Positions 2,674 to 63,865 of a stretch of DNA of 64,000 nucleotides are shown here, piece after piece. The stretch's first letter is position 1; each line of letters opens with the position of its first letter. Source of the stretch: an uncultured bacterium (GTDB taxonomy: Bacteria > Krumholzibacteriota > Krumholzibacteriia > LZORAL124-64-63); NCBI GenBank assembly GCA_963732385.1, contig CAVSZB010000007.1, forward strand, positions 192,001-256,000, read 5' to 3'. A model generated the notes under the pieces. It did not search any database, had not been told where the DNA came from, and saw nothing but the letters and a program-made list of their open reading frames with translations. The position numbers were made by a program, and so were the translations under genes.

Positions 2674-4308
<1,635 letters not shown>

Positions 4309-45014: not shown

Positions 45015-51718
<6,704 letters not shown>

Positions 51719-51758
51719 ACCGGTCCGTCCGCCCACTCCGACGACAGGCGAAATCATC

Positions 51759-53363
51759 GTGAGCTCGCGACCGTTCGTCATTGGCGAGGAGGCCCTCGAC
51801 CTCGCGACCTTCGCGGCGGTCTGTGCCGGCGCGCGGAGCGTGGCGCTTGGCGACGGCGCGCGTGCCCGCGTGATGGCGTCGCTGGCGCTGCGCCGCCGGC
51901 TGGAGGCGGGAGAGGCGCGCGTCTACGGGATCAACACCGGTTTTGGCCGGCTCGCCGACACCGTCATCCCGCCCGCTCAACGCGCGGCGTTGCAGACCAA
52001 CCTCGTGCGCAGCCACGCCGTGGGCTGGGGCCCGCCGCTGACGCGGGCGGAGACGCGCGGACTGGTCTTCCTGCGCGCGCTCAGTCTGGCGCGCGGCTAC
52101 TCCGGCGTGCGTCCCGAAGTCGTCGAGCAGCTGCTCTGGCTGCTGGAGTGCGGACTGCATCCGTGGATCCCGTCGCGCGGATCGGTCGGGGCGAGCGGCG
52201 ATCTCGCGCCGCTGGCGCATCTCGGACTCGTGCTGTTGGGCGAGGGACATGTCCTGGGCGAGGATGGCCGCCGGGAGCCGGCCGCCGCCGCGCTGGCGCG
52301 GCACGGTCGCGCTCCGCTGCGGCTCGAGGCGAAGGAGGGACTCGCCCTCATCAATGGCACGCAGCTGATGAACGCGCTCGGCCTGCTGGCGGTGGCCCGG
52401 GGCGAGCGTCTGCTGCGGTGGGCGGTCGTGGCCGCCGCGCTTTCGGCGGAGGGACTCGAGGCGAGTGTGGCGCCGTTCGGGGCGCGCTACCACGCGCTGC
52501 GGCCGCATCCGGAGATCGCGGCCGTGGCGGCCGCGATCGACGCCCTGCTCGCCGGCAGTCCGATCGTTTCCGCCCACGGGGATTGCCCGCGCGTGCAGGA
52601 TCCCTACTCGGTGCGTTGCGCGCCGCAGGTGCTCGGCGCGAGCCTGGCCGCGCTGCGTCAGGCCCGCGTGGTGATGCTGCGGGAGGCCGGCGCCGTCACC
52701 GACAATCCGGTGCTGCTGCCGGAGGAGGGGATCGCCGTCTCGGGCGGCCACTTCCACGGACAGCCGTTGGCGTTGCAGCTCGATGCGCTGGCGGTGGCGC
52801 TGTGCGAGATCGGCAGCGTGGCCGAGCGGCGGGTGGCGCTGTTCATGGGGGGCAACGGGGGGCGACTGCCGCGGTTTCTCGCTGCCGCGCCCGGCCTCGA
52901 GTCGGGCCTGATGATCGCTCAGTATCTGGCGGCTGCACTGGTCAGCGAGAACAAGACCGGCGCCTTTCCCGCGAGTGTCGATTCGATCCCCACTTCCGAT
53001 GGCCAGGAGGACCACGTCAGCATGGGCAGCGTGGCGGCGCTGCGCCTGGCGCCCCTGCTCGATCGCGTGGAGGCGGTGGTGGCGATTGAACTGCTGACGG
53101 CGGGACGGGCGCTGCAGTTCATCGGCGATCCGTCCCGCGCGGAAGCGTGCGGACGCGTGGCCCTGACCATGGCGAAGGCGACCGCGGCGGTCCTGGCGCA
53201 GCTGGCCGCGACGGTCGATCTGGCGCCGGTGGACCGGTCGTTGACGGAGGACCTGGAGCGGATCTGCCGGCTGATCGGCGGGGCTGAGGCGGCCGGTTGC
53301 GCCACGGCGCTGGCCGCCCTGGCCGCCGGGCCCGACCTGGCGCCCGCAGTTCCGGCGGCCTGA
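51759..53363 (+). CDS. hutH: Histidine ammonia-lyase
   Basis: VYGINTGFG, GSVGASGDLAPL (MIO-forming ASG), KEGLALING, VQDPYSVRC, QEDHVSMG; adjacent to hutI. Confidence 0.93.
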   Translation: MSSRPFVIGEEALDLATFAAVCAGARSVALGDGARARVMASLALRRRLEAGEARVYGINTGFGRLADTVIPPAQRAALQTNLVRSHAVGWGPPLTRAETRGLVFLRALSLARGYSGVRPEVVEQLLWLLECGLHPWIPSRGSVGASGDLAPLAHLGLVLLGEGHVLGEDGRREPAAAALARHGRAPLRLEAKEGLALINGTQLMNALGLLAVARGERLLRWAVVAAALSAEGLEASVAPFGARYHALRPHPEIAAVAAAIDALLAGSPIVSAHGDCPRVQDPYSVRCAPQVLGASLAALRQARVVMLREAGAVTDNPVLLPEEGIAVSGGHFHGQPLALQLDALAVALCEIGSVAERRVALFMGGNGGRLPRFLAAAPGLESGLMIAQYLAAALVSENKTGAFPASVDSIPTSDGQEDHVSMGSVAALRLAPLLDRVEAVVAIELLTAGRALQFIGDPSRAEACGRVALTMAKATAAVLAQLAATVDLAPVDRSLTEDLERICRLIGGAEAAGCATALAALAAGPDLAPAVPAA

Positions 53364-53381
53364 GGCGGGAGGAGGGAGGCG

Positions 53382-54713
53382 ATGATGCACGCGGAGAACA
53401 ACAGCGCTGACCTGTGGCTGGACGTGGCGCGACAGCGCGCCGGGGCGACGGCAGGTCTGCTGGTGCACGGCATTGGCCAGCTCTGCACGCTGCATGATCC
53501 GGCGCTCGACGCGGCGGGACCGCGGCGGGGCGAGGGGTTGTCCCGGCTCGGGATCTTCACCGACGCGGCGCTCGCGGTGGCGGACGGTCGGGTGCTGGCG
53601 GCGGGGCCGGAGGCGGCCGTGCGCGAGGCGGTGGTGTGCTCCCCGGCCACGGTGATGGTCGACGCCGGCGGTCGTTGCATCGTGCCGGGCTACGTCGATC
53701 CGCATACGCACGCCGTCTTCGGGCGCTGGCGCCAGGACGAGTACGAGCGGCGGCTGCGCGGCGAGACGTATCAGGCCATTGCGGCCGGTGGCGGCGGCAT
53801 CCATGCGTCGGTGCGCGATCTGCGCGCGCGCGACACGGAGGAACTTGTCGCGCTGGTGGTGCCACGGCTCCGGGAAATGGTCACGCATGGCACTACCACC
53901 GTCGAGATCAAGAGCGGCTACGGCCTGACCCTCGCCGACGAGGTGAAAATGCTGCGGGTCGCGCGCGCCGCGGCCGGGGTCGCCGATTTGCGCGCCGTCC
54001 TGACCTGCCTGGCCGCGCACGAGGTACCGGCGGAGTTCCGCGACCGGCGCGCGGCGTACATCAGTCTCGTGGCCGATGAGATCCTGCCGGCGGTGGCGCG
54101 GGAGGGGCTGGCCGAACGGCTGGACGTCTTCTGCGAGCCGTCGGTGTTCACGCTCGCGGAGACCGAGCGGCTGGTGCGCCGGGGCGCGGAGCTCGGTCTG
54201 GCCGCCGTGCTGCACGCCGACGAACTGGAACCGATGGGCGGGGCGGCGCTGGCGGCGCGGCTCGGCGCGCGCTCGGCCGATCACCTCATCCGGATCGACG
54301 CCGCTGGAATCGCCGCCCTGGCGGCGTCGCGCACGGTCGCCGTACTGCTGCCGGGAACCGTGTTCACGCTCGGTCTGCGGAGCTACGCGCCGGCGCGCGA
54401 ACTGATCGCCGCGGGTGCGGCTGTGGCGCTGGCGAGCGATTTCAATCCCGGCAGTTGCCCGATCCTCTCGCAGCCGCTCATCCAGGCCATCGCCTGCACT
54501 CAGATGCGGCTCACGCCCGCCGAGGCCCTCACGGCCTGCACCCTCAACGCCGCGTGGGCGCTGGGCCGGCAGGACGAGGTCGGTTCTCTCGCCCCGGGCA
54601 AGCAGGCTGATTTTCTCCAGCTTGATGGCGGCGACTACCGGCTGGTGCCCTATCGGGCCGGCCACAACCCCGTGGTGGGGGTCTGGCGGGCCGGTAACCG
54701 GATCGGCCCGTGA
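53382..54713 (+). CDS. hutI: Imidazolonepropionase
   Basis: PGYVDPHTH, YQAIAAGGGGI, EIKSGYGL, DVFCE, HADEL, SADHL, ASDFNPGS. Confidence 0.95.
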   Translation: MMHAENNSADLWLDVARQRAGATAGLLVHGIGQLCTLHDPALDAAGPRRGEGLSRLGIFTDAALAVADGRVLAAGPEAAVREAVVCSPATVMVDAGGRCIVPGYVDPHTHAVFGRWRQDEYERRLRGETYQAIAAGGGGIHASVRDLRARDTEELVALVVPRLREMVTHGTTTVEIKSGYGLTLADEVKMLRVARAAAGVADLRAVLTCLAAHEVPAEFRDRRAAYISLVADEILPAVAREGLAERLDVFCEPSVFTLAETERLVRRGAELGLAAVLHADELEPMGGAALAARLGARSADHLIRIDAAGIAALAASRTVAVLLPGTVFTLGLRSYAPARELIAAGAAVALASDFNPGSCPILSQPLIQAIACTQMRLTPAEALTACTLNAAWALGRQDEVGSLAPGKQADFLQLDGGDYRLVPYRAGHNPVVGVWRAGNRIGP

Positions 54714-56528: not shown

Positions 56529-59036
56529 ATGCTGGACGGAAGCGCACAGGAGCGGACGCCGGGAGTGCTCCGCCGAACGGTCCTGCTCGGGCTCTTCGCC
56601 GGCACGGCGGTCGGCGCCGGTTTGCTGCTGGCCGGAATCCCCAACTGTGAACTGATGACCCTCCTTTGCGCGCTGGCCGGGGGCGTGCTCGGCCGTGGCG
56701 CCGGTGCGGTCGTGGGCGCCCTCGCGGTCACGTTCTACTCCTTGGGCAATCCGCTCGGTCCGGCGCCGCCCCCCCTGCTCGCGGCTCAGGCCGCCGGTTT
56801 GGCGATGGCCGGCTGGCTGGGCGGAGCCACGGCCGGCGCGGTGCTTGCCCGCTGGCGCGCCGGCAGGCGTCGTCACGCCTCCCTGCTGGCGCTCGGAACC
56901 GGCGTGGGATCGACGCTGTTCTACGACCTGCTCACGAACCTTTGCGGCGCGGCCGTCTTCGGTGTCGACTGGCGGGTGGTTCTGGCCGGCGCGATCCCCT
57001 TCAGCTTGGTGCATGTGGCGGTGAACGGCGTGCAGTTCCTCCTTTTGTATGCCCCTCTGCTGGCGCGTTACCGCCATCTGGCGCAAAGCCCGCTGCGCGG
57101 GGACGGCCCGACGGTCGTGTTGACGCTGCTGCTGGCCCTGGCGGTTGCGCCGGAAGCCCGCGCCGCGGCTCCGGCCGACAGCGCGGCGGTCATGCCGGTT
57201 GACGGCACGGTCGCGCCGCCCGCTTCGCCCGCCCCGCCAGACAGCGTGATTGTCGCGTCGGACGCCGACACCGTAACCGCCATTTTGCCCCTGCCGCCGT
57301 TCGCAGGGGCGTTCGCCACGACTTATGTGGAACAGCTCACGCTCGACACGGCCTGGACTCCGCTGGTGGACGGCGGGCTGGGCGGGCGGATCGTGCTGGC
57401 ACATGAGGCCGACACGTCGCCGTGGCCGGCGGTGTGGCGCGACGACGTGCCGCTGGGCGTCGGCCATCGCTGGATCGACGAGCCGTGGCTGGTGCCGCTC
57501 GCCGGCCAGGAGATCAGCACGGTTTCTTACGGTCTCGACGCGTTCGGAGGATTCGGCGGAGAGGTGCGTCTTTCGCCTCTCGACAGCCGGCCGCAGGAGC
57601 CGGTGCTCGAAACGCAGTTCTTCAAGGGGGGGCACGGCACTTATCTGCGCCGGCTCGCCTTCCGCACGCCGCACGCGCCCTGGCGCGCGCGGTTCGACTT
57701 CGAAGAGCGGCTCGACCGCGAGGGCTACGCGCTGTCGCCCGACACAGACCTCCGCTTCGCCAATCTCAAGACGGCCGGATCCGCGGCGCTGCGGTCGGGT
57801 CGGGGCGTGATCGAGCGCGTGCTCGACGACGGTTCGCGTCTCCGGTTCGCGGTCGAGAGCGTGCGCCGACACCGCACCGTGCTGCCGGCCACCGGCACGA
57901 TCCACGAGGAGGCGTGGCTGCAGCGCGCGGAACTGGGCTGGCGCGGCTCGGGCCGGCTCGGCGACCTGCGAGGGGCCGTGTTTGCGACCAGCGCGGACGT
58001 GCAGCGGGAACCGCCCGGGGAATCGGCCGAGTGGCGCCGGTTGGAGGTGACCCGGGAAGGGATTTCCGGCGGCCTCACCGGCGGCGGCGGCCGGCGCTGG
58101 CTCTCGGCGGTCGCCCTGGGCTGGCGTCTGCACGACACGGGTGCCGACGCGGCCTGGGCTGGCGCAGCGGGCGGTCCGGTCGACGGCGCCGGCGCGGAGG
58201 CCGCCCTGCAGGCCGGTCTGCGCGTTCCCTTTCGACGTCTGGCCGTCGTGCCGCGGCTCGTCTTCTCCTGGGCCGATCCCGGCGGCTGGCGGCCCGGCGG
58301 CGCCCTGACCGTCGAGCCTGGCGACGGTGGCTGGTGGCGGTTCGATCTGGAATCGGGGGGTCGGGCGCCGCGCAGTGACGAACTGTTGACGACCGACCGG
58401 GCTGAGGCGCCGGATCGCACGGTGCTGCTCGCGCCGAACCGCGATCTGGGCCGCGAGCGGGTCGTGCGAGCGGCGCTGGCGCTGCGGCGCCAGGTATGGG
58501 GAACCGATCTTGCAGCGACCGGGAGCCTGCGAACCCTGCGCGACGGCATTGCCTGGACCGCGGAGTCCGGCGCCGATGGCACGGGGCGCTGGGAGAACGG
58601 GCTGGACCTCGACGGACGCGTGCTGACGGCCGGTTTGACGCGCACAGTGCGTCTGGCCGGCCTGCTGCGCCTGCGCGCCGACGCGGTCTGGCGCTCGATG
58701 GCTGTGAGCAGCGGTGTCGCGCGGGGCGTACCGCCGGCGCGCGCGGCGTCGCTGGCGGTTGACTGGGAGCACAGTTCGTTTCATGGCGACGGCGTGTGGC
58801 TTCTCGGCTGGCGGATGGAGCGGACCGGCGTGTATGCCGATCCGTGGCTGCCGGTCGCCGGGTACACGCTGCCGGCGCGTGCTTTGCAGCATCTGCTGCT
58901 CGGCTTCCGGCTGGTCGGCGTGGATCTCCAGCTTGAACTGCGCAATCTCACCGACGACCGCCAGCCTGTTTCGGCCGGTGCACTGGCCGAGGGCCGCGAG
59001 GCGCGCTGGCGCCTCGGCTGGACCTTCACGCGCTGA
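56529..59036 (+). CDS. Fusion of an ECF transporter S-component-like domain (aa ~1-190) and a TonB-dependent-receptor/porin-like outer-membrane barrel
   Basis: N-terminus with ~6 hydrophobic helices (IPNCELMT, YSLGNPLG, TLFYDLLTN, AIPFSLVHVAVN); internal signal-like segment ending PEARA|A; plug-like DDVPL...GGEVRL; amphipathic strands ending WRLGWTFTR. Confidence 0.7.
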   Translation: MLDGSAQERTPGVLRRTVLLGLFAGTAVGAGLLLAGIPNCELMTLLCALAGGVLGRGAGAVVGALAVTFYSLGNPLGPAPPPLLAAQAAGLAMAGWLGGATAGAVLARWRAGRRRHASLLALGTGVGSTLFYDLLTNLCGAAVFGVDWRVVLAGAIPFSLVHVAVNGVQFLLLYAPLLARYRHLAQSPLRGDGPTVVLTLLLALAVAPEARAAAPADSAAVMPVDGTVAPPASPAPPDSVIVASDADTVTAILPLPPFAGAFATTYVEQLTLDTAWTPLVDGGLGGRIVLAHEADTSPWPAVWRDDVPLGVGHRWIDEPWLVPLAGQEISTVSYGLDAFGGFGGEVRLSPLDSRPQEPVLETQFFKGGHGTYLRRLAFRTPHAPWRARFDFEERLDREGYALSPDTDLRFANLKTAGSAALRSGRGVIERVLDDGSRLRFAVESVRRHRTVLPATGTIHEEAWLQRAELGWRGSGRLGDLRGAVFATSADVQREPPGESAEWRRLEVTREGISGGLTGGGGRRWLSAVALGWRLHDTGADAAWAGAAGGPVDGAGAEAALQAGLRVPFRRLAVVPRLVFSWADPGGWRPGGALTVEPGDGGWWRFDLESGGRAPRSDELLTTDRAEAPDRTVLLAPNRDLGRERVVRAALALRRQVWGTDLAATGSLRTLRDGIAWTAESGADGTGRWENGLDLDGRVLTAGLTRTVRLAGLLRLRADAVWRSMAVSSGVARGVPPARAASLAVDWEHSSFHGDGVWLLGWRMERTGVYADPWLPVAGYTLPARALQHLLLGFRLVGVDLQLELRNLTDDRQPVSAGALAEGREARWRLGWTFTR

Positions 59037-59099
59037 CTCCGGCGCCGCCGGGCCGGGAGCGCGCCGCGTCGGAGCTGGCGGCGAGTGCAAAGAGCGGCC

Positions 59100-59597
59100 A
59101 TGACCCGCCGGCAGGCCGCCGCCCTGCTGCTCGCCGCCGCGCTGCTGGGGGGCGGTCGCTGCGTGCGTCAGCTGTTGCTGGTGGACGCGACCGGCGCCTG
59201 GCGTGATCCGCTCCTGCTCGACCGCTTTCTGCCGCCCGACGAAACGGCGCTGCTGCCTGCCGGCGGCAGTGTCCCCGCGGTCAGTGGCGGTGGTTCCGGT
59301 GGGGGCACGGTCCCGATCCGTGCCGTGCCCCGCGCGGTGTTCAGCGGACAGCTCGACATCAACACCGCGCCTGCGGACTCCCTCGAACTGTTGCCCGGAC
59401 TCGGACCGGCGCTGGCCAGGCGCCTGGTGGCCGACCGAGCGGTGCGGGGGCCGTATCTCGCCGCCGGCGACCTGGAGCGGGTGAGTGGCATCGGTCCGCG
59501 GATCGCGGCCCGGCTCGCCCCACGCTTGCGTTTTGCAATGCCGCCTCCCGCCCGCCCCTCCCCGCCACCGGCCGCATCGCTGCCGGGCGCCCTCTGA
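59100..59597 (+). CDS. comEA: ComEA-family helix-hairpin-helix DNA-binding protein
   Basis: N-terminal TM; LDINTA..LELLPGLGPALARRLVADR...GPY...DLERVSGIGP. Confidence 0.85.
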   Translation: MTRRQAAALLLAAALLGGGRCVRQLLLVDATGAWRDPLLLDRFLPPDETALLPAGGSVPAVSGGGSGGGTVPIRAVPRAVFSGQLDINTAPADSLELLPGLGPALARRLVADRAVRGPYLAAGDLERVSGIGPRIAARLAPRLRFAMPPPARPSPPPAASLPGAL

Positions 59598-59630
59598 TCG
59601 GGCCATTCACGGCGGCCGGGTAAATGGCCC

Positions 59631-59657
59631 TCAAGTTGCGATCGGGCGCGTCGATCA
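59631..59657 (+). promoter_or_regulatory. sigma28-like promoter upstream of pilB
   Basis: TCAAG-N14-GTCGATCA, preceded by a hairpin at 59600-59630. Confidence 0.45.
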
Positions 59658-59803
59658 GACAGCAGACACTACAGGCAGGCCGTCCGGCGCGGCCCGGCGC
59701 CCCCTGTGCCACGGGAGGCGATGGGTGGTGTCATGTCGCGACGGTCGCCGGCGCGGGAGCCACTGTGGAAAGCGCCTACGCACGCCGTAAACCGGGGGCG
59801 AGC

Positions 59804-61507
59804 ATGAACGTCAGCAAAAGCCTGGTGATCAAAGACAAGATCGCGGGGCGTCTGCTCGAAGCGAATCTCATCAGCCAGGACGATCTGAACAAGGCTGTTG
59901 AGCTGCAGAAGAAGGATGGCGGATCGCTCGGCCTCTGCCTCGTCCGTGCCGGCGCGATCAGCGACAACGCCTACGCGGAATTTCTCGGCAAGGTGTACAA
60001 CCTGCCGGTGGTGAATATCGAGAAGCTCGAAATCAGCCGTGAAAGTCTGGCGCTGATCCCTGCCGACGTGGCGACGAAGTTCCAGGTGCTCCCGCTGCGG
60101 CGCGAGGGGCGCATCCTCACCGTGGCGATGTCGAATCCGAGCAACATCTTCGCCATCGACGACATCAAGTTCATCACCGGGCTTGACGTGCAGCCGGTGG
60201 TCTGCGGCGAAGCGTCGATCAAGCGCGCCATCGATGCCAACTACGACTCGGCGGACTCCCTCGCCGCGATCATGCAGGGCCTCGAGGCCGACATCGAGAT
60301 CGTGGAAGATGAAGAGGACGAGGAGGCGCTTTCCGGCCAGGAGTCGAGCCAGAACGCCCCGGTGGTCAAACTCGTGAACACGGTGCTGGCAGAGGCCGTG
60401 AAGATGGGCGCCAGCGACATCCACGTCGAGCCTTACGAGAAGCACCTGCGCGTGCGCTACCGCATCGATGGCGTGCTCGAGCCGATGATGGAGCCGCCGT
60501 TCAAGATGAAGAACGCCATCATCAGCCGCCTGAAGATCATGGCGGAGCTGGACATCGCCGAGCGGCGCATTCCGCAGGACGGCCGCATCAAGCTCAAGGT
60601 CGGCGACAAGAAGATCGACCTCCGCGTGAGCACTCTGCCGACGATCTTCGGCGAGAAGGTCGTGATGCGAATCCTCGACAAGGGGAACCTCAACATCGAC
60701 CTTGCCGCGTTCGGCATGGAGCCCAAGGCGCTGGACGACCTGATGCAGGCGATCGCAGCGCCGTTCGGAATGGTGCTGGTGACCGGCCCGACCGGATCCG
60801 GCAAGACCACCACGCTGTACTCCTGTCTGTCGCGCCTGAACACCCCTGAGCGCAACATCATGACGGCCGAGGACCCGGTCGAGTACAACCTCGACGGCAT
60901 CAACCAGGTGCAGGTGCGCGACGAGGTCGGGCTCACCTTCGCCGCGGCGCTGAAGGCGTTCCTGCGGCAGGACCCGAACGTGGTCATGGTCGGTGAGATC
61001 CGCGATCTGGAGACCGGATCCATCGCCACCAAGGCGGCGCTTACCGGCCATCTGGTGCTCTCGACTCTGCATACCAACGATGCGCCCAGTACGATCAACC
61101 GCATGATCGACATGGGCATCGAGCCGTTCCTGGTGGCTTCCTCGACGAACATCATCATGGCTCAGCGTCTCGTGCGCCGGATCTGCAAGCACTGCAAGGC
61201 CGAGGAGAAGGTGCCGCCCGAGTCGTTGTCCGGCGTCGGACTCAAGCCCGACACGGTCGTTTACAAGGGCCGCGGCTGCGATCAGTGCGGGGGCAACGGC
61301 TACTCCGGACGCCAGGGACTGTACGAGGTCATGCCGATCACTCCCGAGATCCGCGACATGATCCTTGATCGGGCATCCACCAGCGAGATCTGTCGCAAGG
61401 CGATCGAGCAGGGCATGCTCACCCTGCGCCAGGACGGACTGATGAAGATTCAGAGAGGCATCACGACCATCGAAGAGGTCCTGCGGGAGACCTCCGGAGT
61501 CGAGTGA
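59804..61507 (+). CDS. pilB: Type IV pilus extension ATPase PilB
   Basis: ASDIHVEP, LDIAERRIPQDGR, GPTGSGKTTTLY, EDPVEY, LRQDP..GEIRD, TGHLVLSTLHTND, tetra-Cys zinc motif. Confidence 0.95.
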   Translation: MNVSKSLVIKDKIAGRLLEANLISQDDLNKAVELQKKDGGSLGLCLVRAGAISDNAYAEFLGKVYNLPVVNIEKLEISRESLALIPADVATKFQVLPLRREGRILTVAMSNPSNIFAIDDIKFITGLDVQPVVCGEASIKRAIDANYDSADSLAAIMQGLEADIEIVEDEEDEEALSGQESSQNAPVVKLVNTVLAEAVKMGASDIHVEPYEKHLRVRYRIDGVLEPMMEPPFKMKNAIISRLKIMAELDIAERRIPQDGRIKLKVGDKKIDLRVSTLPTIFGEKVVMRILDKGNLNIDLAAFGMEPKALDDLMQAIAAPFGMVLVTGPTGSGKTTTLYSCLSRLNTPERNIMTAEDPVEYNLDGINQVQVRDEVGLTFAAALKAFLRQDPNVVMVGEIRDLETGSIATKAALTGHLVLSTLHTNDAPSTINRMIDMGIEPFLVASSTNIIMAQRLVRRICKHCKAEEKVPPESLSGVGLKPDTVVYKGRGCDQCGGNGYSGRQGLYEVMPITPEIRDMILDRASTSEICRKAIEQGMLTLRQDGLMKIQRGITTIEEVLRETSGVE

Positions 61508-61559
61508 TGAACTGGGCCGCGATCGGCCACGCGGTTACCCGGATATATGGAGGATAGTC

Positions 61560-62633
61560 GTGATCAACATGCGCGAATTGCTCGAGGATATGGTCAGCCG
61601 GGCAGCGTCCGATCTGCACGTCACCGCCGGCCTCGCCCCGCAGTACCGGGTCGATGGCGCCATCCAGGCCAGCAATTTTCCGACGCTGACGCCCGAGGCG
61701 ACCCGCCAGCTTGCCTACAGCATCCTGAACGATGAGCAGAAGAAGCGGTTCGAGAACGACAAGGAACTCGATTTCTCATTCGGCGTGCAGGGTATCAGCC
61801 GGTTCCGCGCGAACGTCTTCCAGCAGCGTGGTTGCACGTCGATGGCGATACGTCAGATCCCGTACACGATCCAGACTTTCGAGGAGCTCGGGCTGCCGCC
61901 GGTCGTGCGCATGCTCGTGAGCCGGCCGCAGGGGCTGATCCTCGTCACCGGACCGACCGGCAGCGGCAAGTCAACCACGCTGGCCACGATGGTCGACCAC
62001 ATCAACCGCAACATGGCGGGACACATCATCACGATCGAGGATCCGATCGAATACGTGCACCAGCACAAGAAGTGCATCGTCAACCAGCGCGAGGTCAACA
62101 ACGACACTGGCTCATTCCCGCAGGCGCTCAAGTACGTATTGCGCCAGGATCCTGACGTGATTCTGATCGGCGAGATGCGCGACCGCGAAACCGTCGCCGC
62201 CGCGCTGACCATCGCCGAGACCGGGCATCTGGCCATGGCCACGCTGCACACGAACAGCACCTACGAATCGATAAACCGCATCATCGACGTGTTTCCGGCC
62301 GAGCAGCAGAACCAGGTGCGGTCACAGCTGGCGTTCAGTCTTTCCGGCGTGATGACCCAGCAACTCATTCCGCGGGCCTACGGACGCGGGCGCGCGCTGA
62401 CGCTGGAGATCATGGTCTGCACGCCGGCGATCAAGGCGATGATCCGCGACAACAAACCGCATCAGATCTACGGCCTCATGCAGGCCGGTCAGAAGCACGG
62501 CATGCAGACCATGAACCAGTCCCTGTACCAGGCGTTCGTCAACAAGTGGATCTCGCGCGAGCAGGCGGTCAGCCGCAGTTCCGATCCCGCGGAACTGTTG
62601 CAAATGATGGGCGAGCCTGTAGGCGCGGTCTGA
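61560..62633 (+). CDS. pilT: Type IV pilus retraction ATPase PilT
   Basis: ASDLH, RFRANVF, GPTGSGKSTTLA, TIEDPIE, GEMRD, AETGHL, AIKAMIRD (AIRNLIRE-like), GMQTM. Confidence 0.95.
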   Translation: MINMRELLEDMVSRAASDLHVTAGLAPQYRVDGAIQASNFPTLTPEATRQLAYSILNDEQKKRFENDKELDFSFGVQGISRFRANVFQQRGCTSMAIRQIPYTIQTFEELGLPPVVRMLVSRPQGLILVTGPTGSGKSTTLATMVDHINRNMAGHIITIEDPIEYVHQHKKCIVNQREVNNDTGSFPQALKYVLRQDPDVILIGEMRDRETVAAALTIAETGHLAMATLHTNSTYESINRIIDVFPAEQQNQVRSQLAFSLSGVMTQQLIPRAYGRGRALTLEIMVCTPAIKAMIRDNKPHQIYGLMQAGQKHGMQTMNQSLYQAFVNKWISREQAVSRSSDPAELLQMMGEPVGAV

Positions 62634-62650
62634 GCGAAGGGGAGGGAGTC

Positions 62651-63865
62651 GTGGCAGCCAGCACCATGTTCGTCTGGAAGGGTCGGTCCCCCAAGGGAGA
62701 AATTCTTTCCGGCGAGTACGAGGCCACCGACAAGCATGAGGTTTCCGAATATCTCCGCAAGCGGCGGATCATCATCACCACGATCAGGAAGAAGCCGAAG
62801 AATCTGCGCTTCGGGCTCGGGGGGGGCGGCAAGGTCAAGGTGCGCGATCTGAGCGTGTTCACACGCCAGTTCGCCACCATGGTCAACGCCGGTCTGCCGC
62901 TGGTGCAGTGCCTCGACATTCTCGGGCGCCAGATGGAGAAGCCGTTCTTCCGCGCGACCGTGCAGCAGGTCATGCTCGACGTGGAGGGGGGCTCCACGCT
63001 GGCGGAGGGTCTGGGCAGGCATCCGCGCATCTTCTCTGACCTGTACACCAACATGGTGGCGGCCGGTGAGACGGGCGGTATCCTCGACACCATCCTGACG
63101 CGGCTGTCTCTCTACCTGGAGAAGGCTGACGCCCTGCAGCGCAAGGTCAAGGGCGCGATGACCTATCCGACCATCGTGCTGGTCGTGGCCGGCGGCGCGA
63201 CCATTTTCATGCTGCTGTTCGTCATCCCGGTGTTCGCCAAGATGTTCTCCGATTTCGGCGGCACGCTGCCGGCTCCCACACGCATCGTGATGGGGCTGTC
63301 CATCTTCCTGCAGCACTACTGGTGGGCTTTGGGTGGCGGGGCTTTCGGCCTCTCGGTCCTGTTCAAGCGCTATCGCGCCACGAAGAAGGGCCGCCTGCAG
63401 ACGGACAAGTTATCGCTGCGTATCCCCATCCTGGGCGACGTGCTGCGCAAGTCGTCGGTGGCCCGCTTCACCCGGACGCTCGGCACGCTGGTCGGGGCCG
63501 GCGTGCCGATCCTGCAGGGGCTGGAAATCACCGCCAAGACGGCCGGCAACATGGTGATCCAGAATGCGATCGTCGCGACCCAGAAGAGCATCAGCCAGGG
63601 CGATACAATCGCCGAGCCACTGCGCAAGAGCGAAGTGTTCCCGCCGATGGTGGTCCAGATGATCGGCATCGGCGAACAGACGGGCGCGCTCGATGAGATG
63701 CTCAACAAGATCGCGGACTTCTATGACGACGAGGTGGACACGGCGGTGGATGCGTTGACCGCGGCTATCGAGCCGATCATGATCGTGGTCATGGGCGTGA
63801 TGGTCGGCGGCATGCTGATCGCGATGTATCTGCCGATGTTCCAGATGGCCAATGTGGTCGGCTGA
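62651..63865 (+). CDS. pilC: Type IV pilus platform protein PilC (T2SS F family)
   Basis: GTG after GGAGGGAG; FTRQFATMVNAGLPL, AGETGG.LD, AMTYP, GEQTGALDEML, EP, AMYLPMF. Confidence 0.95.
   Translation: MAASTMFVWKGRSPKGEILSGEYEATDKHEVSEYLRKRRIIITTIRKKPKNLRFGLGGGGKVKVRDLSVFTRQFATMVNAGLPLVQCLDILGRQMEKPFFRATVQQVMLDVEGGSTLAEGLGRHPRIFSDLYTNMVAAGETGGILDTILTRLSLYLEKADALQRKVKGAMTYPTIVLVVAGGATIFMLLFVIPVFAKMFSDFGGTLPAPTRIVMGLSIFLQHYWWALGGGAFGLSVLFKRYRATKKGRLQTDKLSLRIPILGDVLRKSSVARFTRTLGTLVGAGVPILQGLEITAKTAGNMVIQNAIVATQKSISQGDTIAEPLRKSEVFPPMVVQMIGIGEQTGALDEMLNKIADFYDDEVDTAVDALTAAIEPIMIVVMGVMVGGMLIAMYLPMFQMANVVG

Follow-up and report, generated by a model that had tools for sequence, protein, structure and literature searches.

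A single uninterrupted open reading frame of 835 codons lies at positions 56529-59036 (+) of the window, that is, of the whole 64,000-nucleotide stretch of DNA analyzed here (C7:192001-256000 of a 95.8% complete genome from an uncultured bacterium of the Krumholzibacteriota; working label G000, with C7 and C8 as contig labels). Its product opens with a domain modeled as an S-component of an energy-coupling factor (ECF) importer of the inner membrane, passes through a segment that resembles a signal peptide, and ends in the plug and barrel of a TonB-dependent transporter of the outer membrane. A first-pass annotation, made from the sequence alone, had described this frame and proposed that it encodes a two-membrane vitamin-uptake system, possibly for B12, as one precursor. 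The frame is real and conserved; its product would most readily be understood as a precursor of two proteins.

The fused gene and its two domains

The frame is stop-free and coding-like in base use throughout, with a third-position GC of 0.80-0.92 across every part of the fused gene, as in real genes, and every S-component-like motif quoted in the annotation is present. Scoring of 8000 candidates gave 26 full-length homologues (792-904 aa, 35-91% identity), one of which, 77% identical, carries the source label Candidatus Krumholzibacteriia. In the source genome's own family (hereafter the family; tallies over 208 genomes are phylum-wide), the S-component and barrel profiles match a single frame in 27 (14 + 13) of the 29 genomes read across the joint. 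The two exceptions carry frameshifts, after the hydrophobic segment in G123 and inside the S-component in G140. These counts come from direct reads; a proxy, a frame of at least 750 aa, gave 54/62 but misjudged at least G140. Contigs of relatives from two studies also bridge the joint, with all gaps in-frame (56876-57334 and 56826-58174), and RNA-library contigs cover the fused gene without demonstrating transcription, with small word shares in all runs. An assembly or sequencing artefact joining two genes might be suspected, since the two parts are separate genes in most other families and in one of these (G059) the pair is in frame with a single TGA between. Because divergent full-length homologues exist (the same fusion is found in 27 genomes at 35-92% identity) and independent contigs bridge the joint, this explanation is refuted by independent assemblies and has next to no probability left. 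Conservation of the fusion in other genomes supports the annotation's reading of it. Frameshifted copies of the fused gene exist at L072 (G123), L074 (G140) and L086 (G141), for which assembly error and decay are both possible.

The AlphaFold2 model of the full protein has a mean pLDDT of 80 and places six helices in aa ~12-186; modeled alone, the N-terminal domain reaches a pLDDT of 93. In a fold comparison of this separately modeled domain the top 15 rows were all S-components (Z 10.1-15.7), the nearest being FolT, ThiT, PanT and RibU (Z 14-15.7), so that in the model the N-terminal part has the S-component fold that had been proposed for it. The Pfam family ECF_trnsprt matches aa 18-174 only weakly (E 8e-4, below the curated cut-off) and matches 22 of the 26 aligned homologues. 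As judged from sequence, the S-component is closest to CbrT: the sole PDB sequence match of a 22-row S-component profile is 6FNP (ECF-CbrT; E 6e-8, profile positions 4-174), and a P-N-V motif in loop 1 is common to this S-component family and CbrT. Foldseek with the S-component model gave no match under E 0.001. The source genome contains one match to this S-component family, the one that the search covered.

The C-terminal part has the fold of the TonB-dependent transporters, as the annotation had supposed: in the AlphaFold2 model we count 22 strands, reaching aa 834, after a plug. The first 50 Foldseek ranks shown are all TonB-dependent transporters (PfeA, E 1.5e-25; BtuB, E 6e-25, TM 0.77 by target), and a 37-row barrel profile finds E. 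coli BtuB first in the PDB (E 1e-17), followed by BtuB1 (6e-11) and the next receptor at 5e-6. NCBIfam gave no match for the source protein. The protein has no cleavable-type signal at its N-terminus; the signal-like segment is internal (aa 178-212). The barrel is present in 198 of the 208 genomes, and in 123 of the 125 good ones, almost always as a single match, and is retained in 61 genomes without the S-component. It is a BtuB-like core protein of the phylum. TonB genes are present in the source genome. A TonB-box pattern was found in 1/42 fused, 0/8 barrel-only and 0/18 split proteins, the same pattern having missed the riboswitch-led control receptor described below. A plug histidine, His313 (window ~57465), is nearly invariant and aligns near the plug apex of BtuB, which contacts cobalamin; His313 is a possible metal ligand.

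Table 1. Features of the fused gene (window coordinates)
Feature	Position	Strand	Basis
Whole fused gene, 835 aa	56529..59036	+	Uninterrupted translation; 26 full-length homologues; direct reads of one frame in 27 family genomes
Six-helix ECF S-component (aa 12-186) with CbrT-like sequence	56562..57086	+	Model, fold comparison, profile
Basic segment (aa 178-195) at the end of helix 6, n-region of the internal signal	57060..57113	+	Net positive in 67/67 fused proteins examined
Short hydrophobic h-region (aa 196-207)	57114..57149	+	Sequence; model helix 195-204; hydropathy peak at 196
c-region PEARA; signal peptidase I predicted to cut after aa 212	57150..57164	+	A-x-A; homologue enrichment
Unconserved low-complexity linker (aa 213-255), predicted N-terminus of mature barrel	57165..57293	+	pLDDT under 50
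Divergent plug domain (aa 256-350)	57294..57578	+	Model; Pfam Plug matches 11/16 related barrels scanned, not source protein
22-strand outer-membrane barrel (aa 359-835)	57603..59033	+	Model; Foldseek; 37-row profile

The surroundings are ordinary. Upstream of the fused gene are an amidohydrolase gene (hutI-like) and a TPR gene, and downstream is a helix-hairpin-helix gene (Pfam for the three), followed further downstream by three genes that we take to be pilB, pilT and pilC. Other neighbors in 46603-54713 and 59085-63865, mostly named by reading, are ligase-like, DinG-type helicase, hutH-/hutI-like, ComEA-like and pilus genes. A scan for promoters and terminators gave nothing beyond chance. 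A low-GC stretch at 2677-4308 is groEL (named by reading the sequence) and is unrelated to the fusion.

The internal joint and its counterparts in other genomes

The internal signal-like joint that the annotation had pointed out, with a basic n-region, a short hydrophobic core and small residues at -3/-1, is a general property of these proteins. A net-positive stretch and a hydrophobic core follow helix 6 in all 67 fused proteins examined; R180 is invariant and G191 almost invariant in 26 aligned rows. The model places a seventh helix at aa 195-204, inside a low-confidence stretch (187-255). In genomes where the two parts are separate, the barrels of all 15 split loci read open with a signal-like segment, and in eight family genomes read the barrel stands alone, again with an N-terminal signal-like segment.

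Cleavage motifs were counted beyond the hydrophobic core. A small-x-A-Q motif occurs within 18 residues past the core in 18/42 family fusions (2.8 expected by shuffling), in 8/19 other fusions (1.0 expected) and in 12/40 unfused barrels (1.8 expected). A matrix learnt on unfused barrels recovered A-x-A-Q, and its best site in the source protein is after aa 212, with a p of 0.12 for that protein alone. L025 was left out of the small-x-A-Q count, and P0002, a near copy, was left out of the matrix, motif and linker counts. The evidence for a signal peptidase site is mixed, however: the A-x-A count is near chance in the family (27/43 versus 22.3 expected), the learnt matrix gives a mean z of only 0.56 for family fusions and -0.08 for other fusions, and the small-x-A-Q test was chosen after two weaker tests, on rows that are kin. 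Because the joint resembles a signal peptide belonging to the barrel itself, cleavage near aa 212 is nevertheless likely on the sequence evidence.

The distance from hydrophobic core to plug ranges from 26 to 135 aa (median 58) in 42 family proteins, and the linker is unconserved; these distances cover family rows, 18 non-family rows contributing core ends only. In three non-family fusions (P0132, P0174 and P0175) the Pfam plug starts within ~5 residues of the core, and a linker of this length is too short for crossing the periplasm. Triplets of the form D-S/T-hydrophobic, the Bacteroidota O-glycosylation motif, occur at 4.1 per 100 aa in linkers versus 0.22 in barrels; genome-wide the enrichment is modest (0.49 versus 0.18, with a crude classifier). 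The N-terminus of the mature barrel may, on these motifs, be glycosylated.

Outside the family, the S-component and barrel are adjacent, separate genes in 33 of the 34 genomes examined and are fused in one (G039). At 12 of the 15 split loci the stop of the S-component gene overlaps a possible start codon, and at two the overlap is longer; in the remaining one (G059, L021:5036-7540) both genes share one frame, with a single TGA and three bases between. Elsewhere the two proteins are encoded side by side and are probably coupled in translation; the fusion fixes their synthesis at 1:1. On a quick LG+G4 tree of 59 barrels, in which long branches are present, a single clade of all split rows was rejected (p 0.0008), so at least two fusion or fission events occurred. 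The eight barrel-only rows nest inside the fused family on this tree, and the AU test keeps a sister placement (p 0.43), so that the lone barrels need not descend from a fused ancestor that lost the S-component.

The S-component profile found 1346 representatives at E 0.001, and among the best 150 were 34 further proteins of >700 aa; 15 of these are of the family type and 19 are not. Several have Pfam Plug or TonB-barrel matches. Two clusters of fused proteins are labelled KSB1. In one of them (P0167) the S-component is joined to another receptor, a canonical one that has a CarboxypepD_reg domain; the methionine-led signal is kept, and the fusion appears to be recent and independent. P0030-P0034 repeat the joining design with another exported partner: a CbrT-like S-component and a signal-like segment precede an alpha-alpha toroid domain of prenyltransferase type.

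The ECF module and its probable substrate

No ECF A or T gene adjoins the fused gene and Rfam has no match at the locus, as the annotation had stated, and solitary S-components such as BtuM had been offered as its precedent. Pfam and NCBIfam searches of the source genome found neither EcfT nor EcfA, those with CbiQ and ECF ATPase models giving nothing over threshold, and so suggested the same. That reading was overturned by weak CbiQ matches in relatives and a closer search. It turns out that a divergent EcfT is encoded in the source genome at C8:407139-407765, where its gene is flanked by asd and truA (Pfam E 4e-5), together with a fused, two-domain ATPase, EcfA-A', at C7:987785-989440, before pyrR. 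The ATPase has Q-loops that fit the EcfA and EcfA' consensus; they are seen in most of 20 orthologous loci, the second loop in 20/20.

Both genes follow the S-component among relatives. In the 208 genomes EcfT and the S-component occur together in 129, the S-component only in nine, EcfT only in five and neither in 65 (14 discordant). In 91 family genomes the corresponding figures for EcfA-A' are 60 with both, two with the S-component only, three with the ATPase only and 26 with neither (agreement 86/91), and 23 of the 26 genomes with neither have a BtuC-type permease. The solitary reading fails because these divergent components are encoded and co-distributed with the S-component. It can still appeal to BtuM, which, according to PMC6072759, co-localises with btuB and functions without an ECF module. 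A solitary, ATP-independent carrier is nonetheless very improbable here, since the 22-row S-component alignment has no conserved cysteine (Cys40 is restricted to the source genus among 26 aligned rows) and the module is found with it. Solitary CbrT of L. delbrueckii gave no transport without the ECF module (PMC5997447). What detracts from the assignment of the module is that EcfT falls just under the Pfam cut-off (23.6 versus 25 bits), that the ATPase is far under the NCBIfam ECF cut-offs and is assigned by its Q-loop motifs and co-occurrence, and that the genomes are kin, so that the tallies overstate independence. An ECF module is seen in a two-membrane phylum, both of its components being missed by curated cut-offs.

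The substrate is suggested by what replaces the S-component. A BtuC/FecCD-type permease (E under 1e-30) is present in 58 of the 208 genomes, namely in seven of the 138 with the S-component and in 51 of the 70 without it; 131 genomes thus have the S-component only and 19 have neither. These genomes too are kin, with perhaps a handful of independent swaps among them. The permease sits in a cluster with a binding protein and an ATPase; the best PDB match of the binding protein is a B12-binding protein, with iron and heme binders close behind, and in G046 PduO adjoins the permease. No BtuC-type permease was found in the source genome, which has ten B12-binding-domain matches. The near exclusion of the S-component and a BtuCDF-type importer therefore suggests cobalamin, which had been named as a possible substrate and, given also the CbrT match, is the likeliest for the S part. 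In one 96% complete genome (G171, at L153) of a genus that otherwise has the fusion, the barrel stands without the S-component and a BtuC-type permease is present, likely a separate swap.

Other results are less favorable to cobalamin. The permease scores below every BtuC cut-off, and for one of the two permeases tested FhuB is the top match, because of which a heme or iron complex is possible. The fold Z of CbrT (6FNP chain E, 132 residues in the entry) is only 8.2 over 125 aligned residues, so that the fold search does not single out CbrT, and the permease and binding protein of the excluding cluster score about as well against heme and siderophore families. Furthermore, Rfam found no riboswitch at the loci of the fusion, of ecfT and of ecfA-A', nor at five split loci. 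Import of heme, another tetrapyrrole or an iron complex by the S-component instead of cobalamin is nevertheless unlikely, set against CbrT as the sole PDB sequence match, PduO beside the permease in G046 and BtuB as the best match of the barrel. Quite probably, then, the S-component serves an ECF importer for cobalamin or a related corrinoid, which takes the place of BtuCDF among the relatives.

The single cobalamin riboswitch of the source genome lies elsewhere (C7:1215495-1220017) and leads a TonB-dependent receptor gene, then genes for a secreted, propeller-like protein that has a FlgD Ig domain and for PduO. Such a riboswitch is present in 55 of 61 family genomes, with the same receptor behind it in 14 of the 15 loci fetched. 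Because the barrel is found in 198 of the 208 genomes, is kept after loss of the ECF importer and coexists with this separate riboswitch-led receptor, a dedicated one-gene B12 route is not established. Of the two-membrane vitamin-uptake system proposed in the annotation, the inner-membrane half thus stands as a likely cobalamin carrier, but the barrel's part in it is less certain. It could be a second corrinoid receptor, an unregulated one, or it could do something else.

A probable two-protein precursor and known systems

On balance we favor the whole explanation in which the product is a two-protein precursor that is cleaved, its S-component working with the separate ECF module. The first 190 residues would enter the inner membrane and form an ECF S-component, the C-terminus of which is cytoplasmic by established topology. 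A Sec signal peptide that belongs to the barrel and is retained within the chain would then thread the remaining 620 residues into the periplasm, where signal peptidase I would cut near aa 212 and BAM would assemble the plug and barrel in the outer membrane. The S-component, with the separately encoded EcfT and the fused EcfA-A', would form an ATP-driven importer, a partnership suggested by their co-occurrence.

Whether the barrel also feeds the S-component is nearly an even question, with the balance slightly against. The barrel may have a housekeeping or different transport role, the fusion then being a tolerated by-product of adjacent, coupled genes that is cleaved and serves no shared substrate. 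This is a serious contender, although the less probable one: the barrel is nearly universal and nearly always single, it persists in the 61 genomes without the S-component, the fusion has no riboswitch of its own while a second receptor follows the cobalamin riboswitch, and no TonB-box-like motif was seen in 41 of 42 fusions. On the other hand, the TonB-box pattern missed the control receptor too, the barrel profile scores BtuB and BtuB1 well above any other solved receptor, in KSB1 and in each of the 34 non-family genomes examined S-component and barrel are either neighbors or fused, and P0167 joins an S-component to a different, canonical receptor.

The annotation had left a choice between cleavage and a chain spanning the envelope, and the former is now much the better supported. 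In the latter case the chain would stay uncut, helix 7 would be an anchor, and the linker would span the periplasm and tether the outer-membrane barrel to the inner-membrane carrier. A single frame conserved across the whole family, a cleavage motif that is weak in many individual proteins, and a median core-to-plug distance that would extend to ~20 nm by simple arithmetic are all compatible with a tether. A retained, cleaved signal is favored over it because the motif is enriched, being kept as often as in unfused barrels, and because the linker is unconserved and almost absent in three fusions; the h-region is short, and both split genes and lone barrels are frequent. During transport, S-components topple and come away from the ECF module (PMC10368641), which a tether would be expected to hinder. 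We regard the tether as improbable, and equally so an uncut or late-cut polypeptide residing in both membranes, in which a TonB-independent barrel tethered to a toppling, ATP-driven ECF carrier would have cobalamin pulled through both.

Neither a fusion of S-component and barrel nor an internal-signal precursor of an outer-membrane protein was found in the open literature, subscription papers and supplements being outside the scope of that search. If cleaved as proposed, this is a natural bacterial precursor supplying one product per membrane, and it shows that the Sec, signal peptidase I and BAM machineries can cope with a barrel set free from within a polytopic chain. A parallel in design is FbcH of Bradyrhizobium japonicum, a precursor of cytochromes b and c1, in which a polytopic protein is followed by a second protein and the internal signal is cleaved. 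Both FbcH products, however, remain in one inner-membrane complex, whereas here the second product is an outer-membrane barrel. One further lead is PF14121 (Porin_10): a cluster feature search gave Porin_10, Plug and TonB barrel at 0.97, but there is no Pfam match to PF14121 among the source protein, homologues and related barrels scanned, and no functional paper on it was found.

The barrel resembles BtuB and the other TonB-dependent transporters (PF07715 and PF00593) in its plug and 22 strands, with E. coli BtuB as the best profile match. It differs in its internal signal peptide, in a divergent plug without a Pfam match, in the lack of a riboswitch at the locus and in being a near-universal single copy; no conserved TonB-box-like motif was found, with the pattern that also missed the control receptor. 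ECF-CbrT of L. delbrueckii (6FNP; PMC5997447) shares with the present system the sequence family of the S-component, a separate module of EcfT and EcfA/A', and the predicted cobalamin substrate. Here, in contrast, the bacterium has two membranes, a seventh, signal-like helix and an outer-membrane barrel are fused to the S-component, the two ATPases are fused, and the module genes lie at three loci. BtuM (PMC6072759; PDB 8OVV) likewise has the S-component fold (Z 10.8), is encoded with a BtuB-like receptor and belongs to a two-membrane bacterium, but it is solitary and has a cysteine ligand, unlike the protein described here with its ECF module and no conserved cysteine. The same paper names as a gap the inner-membrane route for cobalamin in bacteria that have a BtuB-type receptor without BtuCDF. 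A candidate answer is an ECF importer of the CbrT-like kind, exchanged with BtuCDF from genome to genome within a phylum.

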